From IMG/VR virus record IMGVR_UViG_3300045988_003890, positions 1 to 6,168 of that record: DNA of 6,168 nucleotides. One strand, given 5' to 3'. Origin of the DNA: a virus. Shown here piece by piece: positions 1 through 6,168 of the stretch. The first letter of the stretch is position 1, and each line of letters begins with the position of its first letter. The notes beneath the pieces are model-generated. The model saw only the letters and a list, made by a program, of their open reading frames with translations. It ran no database searches and was not told the DNA's origin. The position numbers and the translations under genes were made by a program.

Positions 1-99
1 AGCACTAGGGGCAAAAGTAGGCAAAACAGGTCTTCAATAATTATGTGCCTATATCCAAAACTCATACCAAATAAGCGGTACCTACCAACAAAAAAAAAT
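1..99. repeat. Terminal redundancy of a circular genome (left copy). It contains the last 13 codons plus stop of the VP2-like gene (2..40) and the first 19 codons of rep (43..99).
   Basis: Read base by base, 1..99 is identical to 6070..6168. Both copies span the same VP2 stop / rep start junction (caaTAAttATGtgc). Confidence 0.95.
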
Positions 100-1074
100 G
101 GCGGGGTACCGCCTGTTTGCCCTGACGAAAGACTACGTTATGTAACAGCAGCATGTGGGGACTGTTATGAGTGCAGGAAACAAAAGCAAAGACAATGGGT
201 AGTAAGAATGTCAGAGGAAAACAGACAAACACCAAATGCATATTTCCTAACACTGACAATCGATGATAAATCCTACAAGCAACTAAAACAAAAATACAAG
301 TTAAAAGACGATAATGATATTGCAACAAAAGCCATAAGGTTATGCCTAGAAAGAGTACGAAAATTAACCGGAAAATCCGTAAAACATTGGTTTATTACAG
401 AACTAGGGCACGAGAAAACAGAAAGATTACATCTCCATGGGATAGTATGGGGCCTAGGAAATGGAGAAAAAGTAACAAACAATTGGAAATACGGAATCAC
501 ATTCACCGGATATTTCGTGAATGAAAAAACTATCAACTACATTACAAAATACATGCTAAAAGTAGACGAAAAGCACCCAAAATTCAGAGGAAAAGTGTTA
601 TGTTCGGCCGGAATAGGCTCAGGCTACCTCAAACGAGAAGACGCTAAAAGGCATGTATATATCCCAGGCAAAACAAATGAATCATACCGGATGAGAAACG
701 GTGGAAAACTCAACTTACCTATCTATTACAGAAACAAAATATTTACAGAAGAAGAACGCGAAAAACTATTCCTAGACAAAATCGAAAAGGGAATAGTCTA
801 TATACTAGGAATCAAAATAGACCTCAAAACAGAAGAATCAAGATACCACGGTGTAATCGTAAGCGAACGAGAACGCTGTGAAAGACTATACCACGATAAT
901 CCGAAAGAATGGGATAAAAGAAAATATTTTAACAGGCTTAAAAAACAAAATCAATGGATAGAATCTAAAGCGACTATGGTCGCCGAGAAGGAAAGAAGAA
1001 AGGAAGAAAGAAGTGAAAAACGATTAAATAAGGACATTGATTTATTCGCCAATCTATATTTCAACTCAAATTAG
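43..1074 (+). CDS. VP4: Rolling-circle replication initiation protein (Microviridae VP4 / gpA-like HUH endonuclease), 343 aa
   Basis: RCR motif I is FLTLT (aa 68-72, nt 244..258). The HUH motif is LHLHGIVW (H130/H132, nt 430..438). The catalytic double-tyrosine motif is Y166-ITK-Y170 (nt 538..552), the YxxKY arrangement known from phiX174 gpA. The N-terminal cluster C26...C38GDC41YEC44R matches the CGxCxxCR signature I recall from non-phiX microvirus Reps. The ATG sits 2 nt after the VP2 stop. Confidence 0.93.
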   Translation: MCLYPKLIPNKRYLPTKKNGGVPPVCPDERLRYVTAACGDCYECRKQKQRQWVVRMSEENRQTPNAYFLTLTIDDKSYKQLKQKYKLKDDNDIATKAIRLCLERVRKLTGKSVKHWFITELGHEKTERLHLHGIVWGLGNGEKVTNNWKYGITFTGYFVNEKTINYITKYMLKVDEKHPKFRGKVLCSAGIGSGYLKREDAKRHVYIPGKTNESYRMRNGGKLNLPIYYRNKIFTEEEREKLFLDKIEKGIVYILGIKIDLKTEESRYHGVIVSERERCERLYHDNPKEWDKRKYFNRLKKQNQWIESKATMVAEKERRKEERSEKRLNKDIDLFANLYFNSN

Positions 1075-1347
1075 GGGCTGCGCTATGGCACGTCCAACAG
1101 GGTTCCGTGTTTATATCATACGGGTCTGTATTTAACACCTCAAACGCCGGGTGGCTTCGGTGTATAGCGGGTGGGTGAGGTGTGCCTTTATCCGAGAGAC
1201 AGCTACCTTAAGACCAAGATAAGGCGTGAAGTGCACCCGACCTACGGTCGTGGTGTGCGGCTTCGCCGATACTATGGTGCTAGTCGCTAAGGAGAGGCTC
1301 GGCGCCTCTCTGTTACTCTAATCCTCGTTCAAACGCCACGAAGGCTT
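1075..1347 (+). other. GC-rich, highly structured non-coding element (candidate structured ncRNA, or ssDNA complementary-strand origin / packaging structure); unclassified
   Basis: The track lists no ORF (its shortest entry is 60 aa) on either strand here. My hand count gives about 150 G+C in 276 nt (~54%), against roughly 20% in the adjacent 1351..1645. Verified helices follow. 1231-1242/1246-1258 has 12 bp including 2 G-T pairs and one bulged T1251. 1292-1298/1304-1310 is GAGAGGC/GCCTCTC (7 bp). 1135-1142/1176-1183 is ACACCTCA/TGAGGTGT (8 bp) and encloses a C(TTCG)G motif at 1155-1160. 1184-1192/1218-1225 is GCCTT(T)ATC/GATAAGGC (8 bp, one bulge). That last helix competes with 1206-1210/1220-1224. 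Strand of function is unknown. Confidence 0.55.
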
Positions 1348-1457
1348 AAAGATACTATTGCTAATAATAATTAAATACTTCAGATAAATATCAGAAAATT
1401 TATAGAATTCAGAAAAATCAATTATATTTGTAATGTCAATAAGAAAGGAGGTGAACA
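1348..1457 (+). promoter_or_regulatory. AT-rich spacer with candidate promoter and repeated TCAGA-A/T-rich motifs upstream of the small-gene block
   Basis: TATATTTG at 1423..1430 fits the Bacteroidetes -7 consensus TAnnTTTG. TATAGAAT at 1401..1408 is a possible sigma70-type -10. TCAGA(T/A)AAA(T/A) occurs three times, starting at 1380, 1391 and 1409. AAGGAGGTGA lies at 1445..1454. No transcript-mapping evidence is possible from sequence alone. Confidence 0.3.
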
Positions 1458-2185: not shown

Positions 2186-2388
2186 AAATCAACGGGACGC
2201 AATGGGTAGAAGTTATCCGAGCTATTTCGACCGCAATAATTGCAATCATTACTACGCTTTGTGTGCAAAGTTGCACAATGAGTTTAAGCGTCAGCAAAAA
2301 CAATCAAAACTCAACGCAAAAGACCGAACAAACAACAACGTCAAGCGTTGATAGTACAAAAATCAATATTAACCCTAAAAACTATTAA
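2182..2388 (+). CDS. Small secreted or membrane-anchored protein, 68 aa. It has an N-terminal hydrophobic segment followed by Cys residues (possible lipoprotein) and a Ser/Thr/Asn/Gln-rich tail.
   Basis: The hydrophobic stretch AISTAIIAIITTLCV is followed by QSC. TTLC or VQSC are weak lipobox-like sites. GGAG lies at 2174..2177 and the start has the AATTATG context. The C-terminal half is low-complexity and polar. Confidence 0.65.
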   Translation: MKINGTQWVEVIRAISTAIIAIITTLCVQSCTMSLSVSKNNQNSTQKTEQTTTSSVDSTKININPKNY

Positions 2389-2391
2389 AAA

Positions 2392-2658
2392 ATGGAAAGA
2401 GAATTTAACGACATGAAAGATGTATTCAGAGTATTACCAACAACTCAAGAAGAAAAAGAATACATGATTGTAATTGGAAAGCATTTAGCAACAACTGAAA
2501 AGTTTCCAACACGTGAAGCAGCAGAAGAAGTAATCAACTCTATAAACTGGAATCTAGTTGCAGCAATGATATATGCATGTAAAGAAGCAGACGAATACGA
2601 GAAGAAACTTAAACGTTCTGCAAAAAAGATTGACAACAACACTAAAAAGGAGGACTAA
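2392..2658 (+). CDS. Hypothetical protein, 88 aa, acidic body with a basic C-terminal tail (KKLKRSAKKIDNNTKK)
   Basis: ORF in the supplied track, placed 3 nt after the previous stop and 3 nt before VP1. Its 3' end carries the VP1 Shine-Dalgarno sequence. Function is unknown. A DNA-binding or packaging role is only a guess from the basic tail and the position. Confidence 0.65.
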   Translation: MEREFNDMKDVFRVLPTTQEEKEYMIVIGKHLATTEKFPTREAAEEVINSINWNLVAAMIYACKEADEYEKKLKRSAKKIDNNTKKED

Positions 2659-2661
2659 ATT

Positions 2662-4578
2662 ATGGCAATAACAAAAAATATTGGTAAAAATACCATAGGT
2701 GACAATAATAAAATGTCGGTAAGTCTGCATAACTATAACATGTCTACACACGACTTGTCGACAATTGTAAGAAACACACAGAGCCCAGGAACATTAGTAC
2801 CGAATCTATGTTTAGTAGGACAAAAAGGAGATACAATCGACATTGACATCGACGCAAATGTGCTGACACATCCGACGACGGGTCCGTTATTCGGGTCATT
2901 CAAATTAGAACACCATATTTATACAGCACCTGTAAGATTGTACAACAGTTGGCTACACAACAACCGTACAAAAATAGGTCTGAATATGGCACAGGTAAAA
3001 TTACCTCAAATAACCGTAGTGTTAAAAAAAACATACGATAACGTATATAAAAAAAACGAAAAGGAATTCCAATGGACGCAAGTAAATCCAAGTTGTCTAC
3101 TAGCATACTTAGGAATCAGAGGTTTTGCAAACTTACAAAATGTAGAAACAAAAACAGCAACAAAAAACGCCGTACCAATTCTTGCATACTATGACATATT
3201 TAAAAATTTCTACGCCAATACACAAGAAGATAATTTTTATATCATTGGAGGTACACCAGAACTAACCGTAGGATACAACGGTAATCCCGTAGATGCAAAA
3301 AATATGAATATAACATTAAAAAATAATGACATATTCACATTTGATAATCTAGTATCACAAAATGGATTAATAATCTATGGAAGCGAAAACAGCCGCTACA
3401 GAGAATGGAAAGCAACAGACATAGGAACATGGAAGTCCAAAACAGAATTATTAATAGACAAAATAAACTCCAAGTCAACCTATATAGTCTCAAAAATGGC
3501 ACAACAGGGTACAACAGCATTACAACAAATACCATTAGAAAACCTCGATACAATCAGAGACAAAATACTATTAACACCAGGAGATATAGTATTTGATATC
3601 GGAAGCAAAATAAGCAGCGTAGCGCCTTTTAACACATTAACAGAAAGATTCAGCAACAATAAATTAAAAACAAGCGCGCCACAATTCGGACTATGTTTAA
3701 AAACATACAATAGTGACTTATATCAAAATTGGATTAATACCGAATGGATAGAAGGAGTAGACGGAATCAATGAAGCAAGCGCTGTAGACGTATCAGACGG
3801 TACACTATCAATGGACGCTTTAAACCTATCACAAAAAGTATACAACTTCCTAAATAGAATCGCAATAAGTGGTGGGACATATCGAGACTGGCTAGAAACT
3901 GTATACACAGGAGGCAACTACATGGAAAGATGCGAAACACCAATGTTTGAAGGGGGTGTAAGCCAGGAAATCGTATTCCAAGAAGTAATTAGCAACAGCG
4001 CATCCGAAAATGAACCACTAGGAACACTAGCCGGACGAGGTGTAACAACAGGAAGACAAAAAGGCGGACATATCCGTATCAAAGTAACAGAACCATGTTA
4101 CATTATAAGTATTTGCTCAATTACTCCACGTATAGACTACGGACAGGGAAACACCTGGGATACCTATCTGGAAACCATGGACGATTGGCACAAACCAGCA
4201 CTAGACGGAATCGGGTACCAAGACTCAATAAACGGAGAGCGTGCATGGTGGGCGGACTACTATACAGCAGACCCAGATTTAAAACGTACAGCAGCAGGTA
4301 AAACCGTAGCCTGGATTAACTACATGACAAATGTTAACAGAACATTCGGAAACTTTGCGCCTGGGATGAGTGAGAGCTTTATGGTATTGAATAGAAATTA
4401 TTCAATGAACAATTCAGCATCACCACAAATCGAGGATTTAACAACATACATAGACCCAGAAAAATTCAATTACATATTCGCAGACGCAAACCTAGATGCT
4501 ATGAACTTTTGGGTACAAACAAGATTTGAAATTAAAGCAAGACGGCTAATCAGTGCAAAACAAATTCCTAACTTATAA
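2662..4578 (+). CDS. VP1: Major capsid protein (Microviridae VP1 / F-like), 638 aa
   Basis: This is the largest ORF. The N-terminal region (HDLSTIVRNTQSPGTLVPNLCLVGQKGDTIDIDIDANVLTHPTTGPLFGSFKLEHHIYTAPVRLY) follows the pattern I recall for microvirus F/VP1 jelly-roll N-termini: S..T...G.L.P...(L)PGD then a (F)VP.RL-type motif. A strong SD (AGGAGG, 2648..2653) lies 8 nt before the ATG. Size and position are typical of non-phiX microviruses. Confidence 0.92.
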   Translation: MAITKNIGKNTIGDNNKMSVSLHNYNMSTHDLSTIVRNTQSPGTLVPNLCLVGQKGDTIDIDIDANVLTHPTTGPLFGSFKLEHHIYTAPVRLYNSWLHNNRTKIGLNMAQVKLPQITVVLKKTYDNVYKKNEKEFQWTQVNPSCLLAYLGIRGFANLQNVETKTATKNAVPILAYYDIFKNFYANTQEDNFYIIGGTPELTVGYNGNPVDAKNMNITLKNNDIFTFDNLVSQNGLIIYGSENSRYREWKATDIGTWKSKTELLIDKINSKSTYIVSKMAQQGTTALQQIPLENLDTIRDKILLTPGDIVFDIGSKISSVAPFNTLTERFSNNKLKTSAPQFGLCLKTYNSDLYQNWINTEWIEGVDGINEASAVDVSDGTLSMDALNLSQKVYNFLNRIAISGGTYRDWLETVYTGGNYMERCETPMFEGGVSQEIVFQEVISNSASENEPLGTLAGRGVTTGRQKGGHIRIKVTEPCYIISICSITPRIDYGQGNTWDTYLETMDDWHKPALDGIGYQDSINGERAWWADYYTADPDLKRTAAGKTVAWINYMTNVNRTFGNFAPGMSESFMVLNRNYSMNNSASPQIEDLTTYIDPEKFNYIFADANLDAMNFWVQTRFEIKARRLISAKQIPNL

Positions 4579-4591
4579 AAATTATAACATT

Positions 4592-4909
4592 ATGAAATAT
4601 TCATCTCCAACAAAAAATAACGGTAGATTAAAATCAGTTGAAATCTACGAGGGTGAAAGCATTGAAACAAAATGCGCAAGAATCCTACAGAACAAGGAGC
4701 CAATCACAGATACAGCACCTATCATTTATACGGCAAAGGAAGATGGTGTACTACCTGCATATAATATCCGAACGGACAGATTCGATATAGCAATGGACGC
4801 TTATGACAAGATTACAAGAAGTTCAGCGAAGAAAGAGATAGCTCCAAAACCGGAAGATTTCGGAAATGTACCAAATAAGACAGAAGGAGGTTCACCTAGT
4901 GAAAACTAA
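4592..4909 (+). CDS. Small structural-module protein, 105 aa; possible internal scaffolding protein (VP3-like)
   Basis: The track ORF 4553..4909 would overlap the VP1 3' end. The ATG at 4592, 13 nt after the VP1 stop, is the more likely start. The gene sits between capsid and pilot genes. The segment PIIYTAKEDGVLPAYNIRTDRFDIAMDA resembles what I recall of gokushovirus VP3 scaffolds. That recall is unverified, so the functional call is about 0.4 while existence of the CDS is about 0.85. Confidence 0.6.
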   Translation: MKYSSPTKNNGRLKSVEIYEGESIETKCARILQNKEPITDTAPIIYTAKEDGVLPAYNIRTDRFDIAMDAYDKITRSSAKKEIAPKPEDFGNVPNKTEGGSPSEN

Positions 4910-5071
4910 ACTGTTTAAAGAGGTATCTTTAAAGCCTTGTAGGTAACAAGCACTTCGGAGTATTTGTAAAGACAAAATACTTTAAAATACACGAAAGTAC
5001 GCACCTACAATTTATTATCAAGTAATATGAATATCGCTTTGAAATATCAAAGCGCGAAAATGTAAATAATT
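4910..5071 (+). promoter_or_regulatory. Structured intergenic region between the VP3-like and VP2 genes
   Basis: A perfect hairpin CGCTTTGA-AATA-TCAAAGCG lies at 5035..5054. A second hairpin pairs 4959-4967 with 4972-4981 (9 bp, one bulge, loop AAAG). A long-range 8-bp pairing joins TTGTAGGT (4937..4944) to ACCTACAA (5003..5010). C(TTCG)G is at 4953..4958 and C(GAAA)G at 4992..4997. No T-tract follows any hairpin. Confidence 0.35.
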
Positions 5072-6109
5072 ATGCTAGGAACAATTATCGGTATAGGTGG
5101 GGCAATTGGAAGTGCAATTGCTAATAACAGCGCCAAAAGTAGCCAATACCAAGAAAATTTAGCTTTAATGAAATACCAGGCTAAATTGAATCAAAAACAA
5201 GCTTATTACAGCACAGGATTAGCAAAGGATTTATGGAATTACACCAACTACGAAAATTCAATGAAACATATAAAAGCCGCAGGACTTAGTCCTGGGCTTA
5301 TATATGGACAAGGCGGAGCAGGCGGAACAACTAGCGGAGCAGGTCAAGCAAACGGAGTAGGAATGCCAAGTAAAACAGGAACAGAAGCAGGACTACAAGC
5401 GCAAGGAATGGCACTACAATTAGCAAATATGGCTAGTCAAGTAAGGCTAAATGAAAGCCAAGCAAATAAAAATGAAGCCGATGCCGACAAAACAAGAGGT
5501 GTAGATACTAAATTACAAGAAGCTACAATTGATAACCTAATAGCCCAGACTTCAAATGAAAAAGTGAAAAAAGGGCTCATATTAGGACAAATCAGAGTGG
5601 CAGATGCGGAAGAGGAACTTAAACGAAACACAGCCGATTGGACTAAAGACAAAGCCGATGAAACACGCTGGAACATCAAAAGCCTACAAAAAGGAATTGA
5701 TAAACTAGCCGAAGAAATCAACGGAATGAAACTCGACAACGAGTTAAAAGAACGGACAATCGACAATAAAACAAAAGAAAGCGCATTAACACTCCAAAAC
5801 CTAATGGCTGAAATACTACTTAAAGGAAGTCAGCAAAAAGTCAATGAAGAGCAAGCAAAAGCGATTCCGGCACAAATCCTACAAGGATGGGAAGAGCTTA
5901 CAAAAAAGGGTAAAGCACTAATCATCCAAAAAGAACAAATGGAAGCCTATGCACAAGACGTAATAAACAGATACGAACTAGGCAAAAAAGGCCTGGACAT
6001 TGAAGAACAAAAGCTCGTCAAAGACATTGTACTAGGAATGCTTGAAATAGCCTCAAAAGGAGCCGGAGCAGCACTAGGGGCAAAAGTAGGCAAAACAGGT
6101 CTTCAATAA
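5072..6109 (+). CDS. VP2: Minor capsid / DNA pilot protein (Microviridae VP2 / H-like), 345 aa
   Basis: The N-terminus is Gly/Ala/Ile-rich (MLGTIIGIGGAIGSAIANN). It contains the motif KAAGLSPGLIYGQGGAGG, followed by a long charged heptad-like region typical of pilot proteins. The C-terminus is again Gly/Ala-rich. The gene lies immediately upstream of rep across the circular junction. Confidence 0.85.
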   Translation: MLGTIIGIGGAIGSAIANNSAKSSQYQENLALMKYQAKLNQKQAYYSTGLAKDLWNYTNYENSMKHIKAAGLSPGLIYGQGGAGGTTSGAGQANGVGMPSKTGTEAGLQAQGMALQLANMASQVRLNESQANKNEADADKTRGVDTKLQEATIDNLIAQTSNEKVKKGLILGQIRVADAEEELKRNTADWTKDKADETRWNIKSLQKGIDKLAEEINGMKLDNELKERTIDNKTKESALTLQNLMAEILLKGSQQKVNEEQAKAIPAQILQGWEELTKKGKALIIQKEQMEAYAQDVINRYELGKKGLDIEEQKLVKDIVLGMLEIASKGAGAALGAKVGKTGLQ

Positions 6110-6168
6110 TTATGTGCCTATATCCAAAACTCATACCAAATAAGCGGTACCTACCAACAAAAAAAAAT
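6070..6168. repeat. Terminal redundancy (right copy). It includes a duplicated partial rep 5' end at 6112..6168.
   Basis: Identical to 1..99. This is an assembly or linearisation overlap of a circular molecule, not a biological repeat. Confidence 0.95.

Follow-up and report, generated by a model that had tools for sequence, protein, structure and literature searches.

What is the role of a GC-rich non-coding island lodged directly behind the replication gene of a small, AT-rich single-stranded DNA phage? The question arises from the record IMGVR_UViG_3300045988_003890 of IMG/VR, a stretch of 6,168 nt hereafter referred to as the window. Its two ends share an exact overlap of 99 nt (1-99 = 6070-6168) and the window is therefore a circular microvirus assembly, one unit of which measures 6,069 nt. 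The long ORFs are all located on the + strand: rep, the capsid gene (2662-4578) and the pilot gene (5072-6109). The island begins directly after the rep stop codon, and the abrupt compositional switch reported at this point in a preliminary description of the locus was readily reproduced: G+C amounts to 54.3% over 1075-1350 and to 20.7% over the following 300 nt (1351-1650), the value for the whole genome being 36.3%. The island is also the 283-nt segment with the highest G+C of the genome, the runner-up elsewhere reaching 47%. The same description had regarded this DNA as non-coding, which is correct. It contains no ORF of at least 60 aa and no conserved reading frame, its substitutions keep base pairs and not codons, and the indels in an alignment of 100 sequences are mostly 1, 2 or 4 nt long. 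A GenBank record (OP549868.1, L003) displays a 'hypothetical protein' spanning the element at 1433-1675; this is probably an ORF-calling artefact, since the helices described below covary and the indels are non-triplet. The limits of the module were taken from the sole stretch of non-coding similarity to unrelated viruses of the second carrier clade (clade B, see below), which covers 1075-1357 with 85-86% identity. The span proposed originally, 1075-1347, thus had the proper start and a 3' end that must be shifted to about 1357.

In order to delineate the family, IMG/VR was scanned with three degenerate core patterns and metagenomes with one, and the matches were then confirmed by profile search, resulting in 127 module copies in 126 loci. 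True matches are confined to microvirus-sized contigs and a few contigs of 7-13 kb. Of these longer contigs, one (L110) is an inverted-dimer assembly and another (L145, 10,976 nt) holds two different copies of the element that are about 83% identical to each other; a further carrier (L164) displays a partial tandem duplication within the 5' domain. In blastn searches, no other non-coding DNA of otherwise diverged faecal microviruses is as well conserved as parts of the island, and the comparison of the island with 50,697 phage records returned matches to uncultured gut or faecal microviruses exclusively. The element keeps the same location across more than 120 independent assemblies, which come from numerous studies and hosts. 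It is nevertheless missing at this position in some relatives, such as Dulem virus 201, where no island follows rep (CDS of 1,038 nt versus 1,032 nt in the window). In Microvirus mar40 (L182), the same site, after rep and before the promoter, is filled by a different GC-rich non-coding island (4711-4947) having no profile similarity to the element family.

Not one of 185,579 bacterial and archaeal genomes matches the core pattern, and the island shows no similarity to plasmids. A comparison with Rfam, advised in the preliminary description, matched no family: with release 15, no hit was obtained at E<=1 in the window and none that was consistent at E<=10 in 12 diverse homologues, the unmatched classes including ribozymes, riboswitches, tmRNA, RNase P, 6S and group I/II introns. 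A hit to Gut-1 in one clade-B 5' domain (E = 7) was not reproduced in relatives. ARAGORN detected no tRNA or tmRNA in the island; a tmRNA-like UAGUCGC resembling the resume region is accompanied by no conserved tag frame in the alignment, and the frames of small SD-AUG ORFs in the Pd loop are not conserved. A scan of genomes for the capsid protein returned one MAG-binned contig of 4.9 kb only. The element is undescribed in the literature searched and defines, on either of the two leading readings weighed below, a new and widespread non-coding family in gut microviruses. The initial argument that a genome under such space constraint would devote this length to a functional element is borne out by its conservation in 126 loci.

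The fold was evaluated on a MAFFT alignment of 100 non-redundant copies. Taken alone, the island folds no better than dinucleotide shuffles, either as RNA (z = -1.4/-0.7) or as DNA (z = -0.96/-0.74), so that the helices found by hand in the preliminary description do not count as evidence on their own. A strong signal comes from comparison: covariation scores 0.306 versus 0.119 in shuffles, none of 500 shuffles reaches 0.306 and slid registers do not exceed 0.082, the paired cells of the whole fold amounting to 88.9% versus 77.6% in shuffles. Covarying secondary structure of the type that generally characterizes structured non-coding RNAs is present on one strand, and both pseudoknots covary. 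The 3' core (about 1198-1347), common to all copies, comprises five covarying helices and two short covarying pseudoknots; pairing reaches 85-98% in Pa, Pb, Pc, Pd, Pe, PK1 and PK2, and a single position shows as many as four pair types. The coordinates are collected in Table 1.

Table 1. Coordinates of the features of the window and of the element, with the observations attached to them.
Feature	Position	Strand	Observation
rep	43..1074	+	From the ORF list; gene complete without the island; stop codon 1072-1074
Whole module (about 284 nt)	1075..1357	+	Strand as written is 'element-sense'; the complement may be the functional strand
Variable 5' domain	1075..1158	+	Lineage-specific hairpins, e.g. 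1075-1095 and 1104-1124; from alignments
P0	1159-1164/1181-1186	+	GGUGUA/UGUGCC; window-type lineage only
Conserved junction GACAGCUACC and hairpin Pf (1206-1210/1220-1224)	1198..1224	+	Conserved columns
Pa	1232-1237/1252-1257 and 1238-1242/1246-1250	+	T1251 bulged; 96.7% paired
Pb	1258-1261/1265-1268	+	Directly abuts Pa; 98.5% paired
Conserved junction CGAUAYYAWGGUGCUAGNCGCUAAG	1269..1290	+	Invariant columns; contains mini-hairpin Pc
Pc mini-hairpin	1279-1280/1286-1287	+	G-C to A-U and C-G to U-A compensations
Pd	1291-1298/1304-1311	+	90% paired; both-sided changes in 6 of 8 pairs
PK1	1301-1302 (Pd loop)/1323-1324	+	2 bp in the window, 3 bp in clade B
Pe	1325-1328/1338-1341	+	94.8% paired
PK2	1332 and 1335-1337/1343-1346	+	Interleaved with Pe
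Conserved 3' tail (U)AAAGAUACUA	1347..1357	+	Common to the window type and clade-B type 2, L002 and L003
Main Bacteroidota-type promoter TTTA-N20-TATATTTG	1399..1430	+	About 65 nt 3' of the module
Second intergenic region, hairpin-rich	4910..5071	-	phiX-origin-like ACTTGATAATAA at 5022->5016; candidate Rep nick site

The inner pairs of Pa occur in up to four types. Its outer pairs are invariant apart from singleton compensations (A-U to G-C, G.U to A-U, U.G to C-G, and C-G to U-A in Tortoise microvirus 13). Exchanges are abundant in the other elements of the core: pair 1260/1266 of Pb reads GC in 56 sequences, CG in 27, AU in 15 and UA in 1; in Pe, pair 1325/1341 is CG 46/GC 37 and pair 1328/1338 is UA 67/CG 19. 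The pairs of PK1 are UA 32/CG 21/AU 20/GC 6 and GC 56/CG 20/UA 8, and its 3-nt match is found in 54 of 100 sequences versus 19+-3 with shuffled partners; those of PK2 are AU 56/GC 27/CG 11, CG 73/GC 14 and CG 68/UA 11. Two of the helices listed in the preliminary description, 1231..1258 with its single bulge and 1292..1310, correspond to Pa and Pd and were found to covary. The remaining ones did not survive the comparison. The helix 1135-1142/1176-1183 keeps its two outer pairs in only 12-13 of 41 sequences and does not covary, and 1184-1192/1218-1225 is nearly invariant, hence uninformative, and receives no comparative support. The kissing contact suggested between CTCGG and CCGAG holds its central pairs in 15 of 99 and 9 of 83 sequences, and the loop of the 1292-1310 hairpin pairs with 1323-1324 rather than with this partner. 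A three-way junction drawn by RNAalifold (GCACC/GGUGC together with UGGUGU/AUAYYA) was also discarded: the compensation for the GGUAC and GGAGC variants lies in Pc and not on the GCACC side, and the long Pa hairpin is the structure that GCGCC/GGCGU supports.

The region upstream of the core is more variable. The 5' domain (1075 to about 1158) is exchanged for replacement sequences or a ~170-nt expansion in other lineages, and its pairing of 64-74% comes with no covariation support. In one clade-B subtype (L037, L085, L120, L137 and L170), an extra GC-rich, hairpin-rich insertion of ~170 nt is found between the 5' domain and the conserved core. P0 is 97.6% paired in the 41 window-type sequences, with one-sided changes between G.U and Watson-Crick pairs, and 69% paired across all lineages; Pf is 95.6% paired in the window-type lineage and 74% overall, and does not covary.

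The carriers belong to exactly two backbone clades. In clade A (54 complete genomes, window included), the element is in gene sense and directly follows rep; the 40 clade-B genomes have it antisense to all genes, with the pilot stop codon on one side and the promoter region on the other. The element is 85-97% identical between the clades while their replication proteins share no tblastn similarity, as expected of a host-specific, not a Rep-specific, signal. The synonymous composition is mirror-imaged as well, 4-fold sites of the coding strand being A.63/T.14 in clade A and A.14/T.65 in clade B, so that the element is always carried by the A-rich strand. With each contig read in the direction of its element, the remaining sequence is A-rich in 124 of 126 loci, spread over these two clades; the exceptions are an inverted-dimer assembly and a 1.5-kb fragment. 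The orientation of the element therefore tracks the strand asymmetry of the genome and not the direction of the genes. As only two clades carry the element, this agreement is worth a Bayes factor of about 2. If the replication signals had once been inverted with respect to the gene block, this single event could explain both the orientation and the skew, and inversions of mitochondrial control regions or origins do reverse strand skew (PMC13602327, PMC2939890). Apart from the element, the only DNA common to both clades is a coding stretch of 103 nt (window 2296-2398) that lies at the end of a 68-aa ORF (2182-2388) and is 79-82% identical to clade-B viruses, its counterpart being located for instance at 4579-4680 of L009. 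This stretch keeps the gene sense between clades, and transfer is thus possible in either polarity.

Single-stranded DNA phages overuse NNT codons, with T-rich third positions, on the packaged strand (PMC3278643). The 4-fold sites of phiX174 (61% T), Chp2 and SpV4 are T-rich like those of clade B. An A-rich coding strand similar to that of clade A is present in an isolate, the cultured gokushovirus phiMH2K of Bdellovibrio (L177; 4-fold A.47, T.23), and the equation of T-rich with packaged is consequently not absolute. CTTGATA motifs are restricted to the non-coding strand in phiMH2K, the virion polarity of which is perhaps worth re-examining. The second intergenic region of the window forms long hairpins as ssDNA (z = -6.2/-5.7) and shows 88-97% identity among relatives that share ~75% in their capsids; this region and the island are the two most structured parts of the genome as ssDNA, and the only ones to fold strongly in a strand that is otherwise skewed. 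The phiX-origin-like heptamer of Table 1 sits there in a small hairpin loop of the non-coding strand. The motif TA(T/A)ACTTGATA(T/A)(A/T)AT...GCGTA occurs on the T-rich non-coding strand in 41 of 54 clade-A genomes and in all sub-lineages, with variable flanks, and resembles the origin core ACTTG/ATATTAATA of phiX174 (rep_origin annotation). The conservation of a phiX-like nick motif on the T-rich strand suggests that this strand is packaged. Taking the NNT rule and this nick-like motif together, we infer that the T-rich strand would be nicked and packaged in both clades, which designates the minus strand in the window. The clade of the window mirrors the usual NNT bias, suggesting that its genes are carried by the strand complementary to the packaged one; it would then probably be negative-sense. 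With the T-rich strand packaged, the virion would hold the complement of the element in every carrier. A phiX-origin-like TATTAATAAC adjacent to the clade-B element was set aside, as it corresponds to C-terminal codons of the pilot gene.

Three hypotheses had been put forward for the island: a structured RNA, an ssDNA replication signal and a host-derived segment used for integration. The second one is best supported, with the twist that the virion strand probably carries the complement of the written sequence. Our preferred reading, to which we assign a probability of about 0.42, is that of an exchangeable, host-factor-specific complementary-strand (second-strand) origin cassette. The virion single strand would enter the cell with most of its length too compositionally skewed to fold. 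The GC-balanced island would fold into Pa, Pb, Pd, Pe and the two short pseudoknots, with conserved unpaired junctions, and would thereby show the priming machinery of the host, be it RNA polymerase or primase, where to begin the complementary strand. This priming function is one that we infer. If the T-rich strand is packaged, the functional fold would be the Watson-Crick mirror image formed on that strand. A conserved and covarying single-strand fold in 126 microvirus loci fits such a cassette, and so does its placement in both clades, where it fills the main intergenic region by rep, from the last gene to the main promoter. Composition and element are inverted together relative to the genes in clade B, and both the T-richness of packaged strands and the clade-A motif agree with the polarity proposed. 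The rank of the island among the two most structured parts of the genome as ssDNA points in the same direction, and the different island occupying the same place in mar40 recalls the alternative types of plasmid single-strand origins (sso). Conserved intergenic hairpins with compensatory changes have been tentatively tied to minus-strand initiation in small microviruses (PMC9865509). Against the origin cassette are the agreement of orientation and skew being drawn from two clades, the A-rich coding strand of phiMH2K, the missing island in Dulem virus 201, and a sequence devoid of similarity to the phiX/G4 origins and of conserved ssoA motifs.

The serious rival is a structured non-coding RNA, folding on the strand as written and either binding a host or phage factor or being catalytic, a reading that we hold to be possible but less probable. 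Several properties of the fold count for it and against the origin cassette. The thermodynamic stability is no higher than that of same-composition shuffles (z about -1). The helices span 2-8 bp and the two covarying pseudoknots 2-4 bp, and the unpaired junctions are invariant; such an architecture is commonly seen in RNA tertiary folds, whereas it is doubtful that DNA coated by SSB would adopt it. The wobble pairs point clearly to neither strand. Pairing throughout the core helices and the two pseudoknots is almost purely Watson-Crick (the differently organized L005-type being set aside), so that the complement forms a mirror-image fold equally well, which fits the origin cassette. Fixed G.U pairs, two at the base of Pa, one closing Pd and others in P0, together with the wobble changes of P0, favor the strand as written over its complement and speak for RNA. 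A first count of G.U against A.C gave 4:1 for the strand as written and was driven by three fixed terminal wobbles. At the other, covarying positions G.U is nearly absent, with 5 cells versus 38 for A.C, which counts against RNA and is confounded by a G to A mutation bias.

Transcription was considered next to the fold. In clade A, the element precedes a canonical Bacteroidota promoter by 60-90 nt, and exactly one TTTG-N17-23-TAnnTTTG is found on this strand at this place in 40 of 54 genomes; the rep transcript would there end in the RNA as its 3' tail. For clade B, the RNA would need an unrecognized start of its own, perhaps with the incoming virion strand as template and a primer or early RNA as product, and our estimate for the RNA reading as a whole includes this virion-templated form. 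A Bacteroidota-type promoter on the element strand was found in 0 of 40 clade-B genomes, which argues for the origin cassette and against RNA, and sigma-70 promoter and terminator scans remained at background level. Upstream of the clade-B element, sigma-70-like candidates are nevertheless present, in the form of T-tract-TTGAGA-N16-18-TAATAT or TGCTATAAT. L009-type loci display two long hairpins ~60-190 nt upstream of the element (e.g. L009 ~4965-5155), an AT-rich one, GTGCTATAATAATAT...ATATAGCAC, containing the perfect extended -10 TGCTATAAT, and a GC-rich one, ACGAGGAGCACA...TGTGCTCCTCGT; the pair may be an ssDNA promoter-like structure or a terminator. RNA is further favored by the variable, expandable 5' peripheral domain with its ~170-nt insertion, by a patchy, accessory-like distribution with horizontal exchange, and by the separate, classical hairpin-rich intergenic region of the window, which could serve replication. 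It is disfavored by the lack of any consistent Rfam match in the 12 diverse homologues even at E<=10 and by the failure to find an RNA gene of Microviridae in the literature searched, and an RNA alone does not explain why the orientation follows strand asymmetry. A combination in which clade A is negative-sense, its packaged T-rich strand being antisense to all genes, and a pseudoknotted RNA is always templated by the incoming virion strand (primer or immediate-early) and exchanged as a polarity-locked cassette, appears unlikely.

The remaining explanations are weaker. A viral-strand origin, in which the flanking hairpins would extrude as cruciforms and expose a Rep nick site within the conserved junction, is quite improbable. 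The complement of the junction does read CCTTGATATCG, with the phiX/pC194 nick core CTTG/ATA, in 74 of 124 copies and on the T-rich strand, this being the only non-coding CTTGATA in clade B types 1 and 3, and all-Watson-Crick helices would suit cruciforms forming on both strands. CTTGATA as a nick site within the element was rejected, however, as it is missing from the window copy and about 40% of copies, which read CCATAGTATCG or CCTTAGTATCG. Such 7-mers occur 1-4 times per genome by chance, the core is common to clades with dissimilar Rep proteins and a better-conserved phiX-like motif is available in the other intergenic region of clade A. A very low probability is also given to a selfish mobile element (ribozyme-like or an HUH-mobilized miniature) that would settle in either orientation at the only permissive intergenic site. 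The discrete, sharp-edged module on unrelated backbones, its opposite orientations relative to the genes and its patchy presence among relatives would be in keeping with mobility. The boundaries, however, display no terminal inverted repeats or target duplications, the element was not found outside microviruses or in cellular genomes, and it has no match to models of self-cleaving ribozymes or introns; a single orientation and position per clade fits two old acquisitions and patch conversion, not active transposition. The integration hypothesis, in the form of a host-derived attachment site, and a chimeric assembly artefact, such as the fusion with a bacterial genome evoked in the preliminary description, have in their favor the abrupt compositional switch and nothing else. 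Both were rejected, their probability being negligible, because the core is absent from the 185,579 cellular genomes and from plasmids and the same element recurs at the same place in so many independent assemblies; in addition, the island contains no tRNA/tmRNA and the long ORFs of the window include no integrase gene.

To our knowledge, no mechanism is known for the start of the complementary strand in microviruses outside the phiX174 group, and no conserved non-coding family has been defined so far in the abundant gut microviruses. The element provides a concrete candidate for such a second-strand start; it is present in more than 120 genomes and its base pairs are individually defined. Mirror-image composition and opposite element orientation suggest in addition that one clade, probably that of the window, has its genes complementary to the packaged strand. 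If true, a negative-sense clade would overturn the assumption that all Microviridae are positive-sense. Should the RNA reading be the right one, Microviridae would gain with the element their first structured RNA gene.

Several known systems are comparable to the element. GOLLD and ROOL are phage-associated structured RNAs without known function in Rfam. They share with it a complex conserved fold, variable peripheral domains, carriage by phages and a patchy distribution; the element differs in having no Rfam match, in residing in a 6-kb ssDNA phage, in lacking an identified promoter in one clade and in its near-pure Watson-Crick pairing. Among ssDNA phages, the minus-strand origins are the n' (PriA) site of phiX174, the primase origin of G4 and the RNA-polymerase origin of M13. 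These are folded intergenic regions of the virion strand that start the complementary strand, the role proposed for the element, and phiX174 and G4 belong to the same virus family. The element has no blastn homology to them, is larger and more intricate and, in the clade of the window, is probably carried by a virion strand antisense to the genes. The hairpins of reekeekee- and roodoodoo-microviruses are likewise conserved intergenic structures with compensatory substitutions, tentatively assigned to negative-strand initiation; they consist of one or two simple hairpins of 13-64 nt in one clade (PMC9865509). The element, in contrast, is a multi-helix, double-pseudoknot module of ~284 nt distributed across two clades. 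Mitochondrial origin inversions (PMC13602327, PMC2939890) offer another case in which the sign of the genome-wide compositional skew is linked to how a non-coding replication region is oriented relative to the genes. The replication system is different and the comparison is an analogy only. The rolling-circle replication (RCR) plasmids carry single-strand origins of the ssoA, ssoU, ssoT and ssoW types. A further comparator is the sso1 of ICEBs1 (PMC4595007). No sequence similarity to these origins was found, and the short helices and pseudoknots of the element differ from the long imperfect hairpins of sso. The hallmarks of ssoA (RS_B, and CS-6 TAGCGT/A in a terminal loop) are not conserved in the element: a TAGCGG is present at 1165-1170 of the window where other copies read TATAACGGG or TATATAGGG. 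Like these sso, the element would be specific to the host and not to Rep, and its orientation would be tied to the strand that is displaced. In its general design, it is nonetheless similar to the sso of RCR plasmids and ICEBs1: a structured non-coding region of 150-300 nt beside rep, exchangeable as a cassette with alternative types at the same position.
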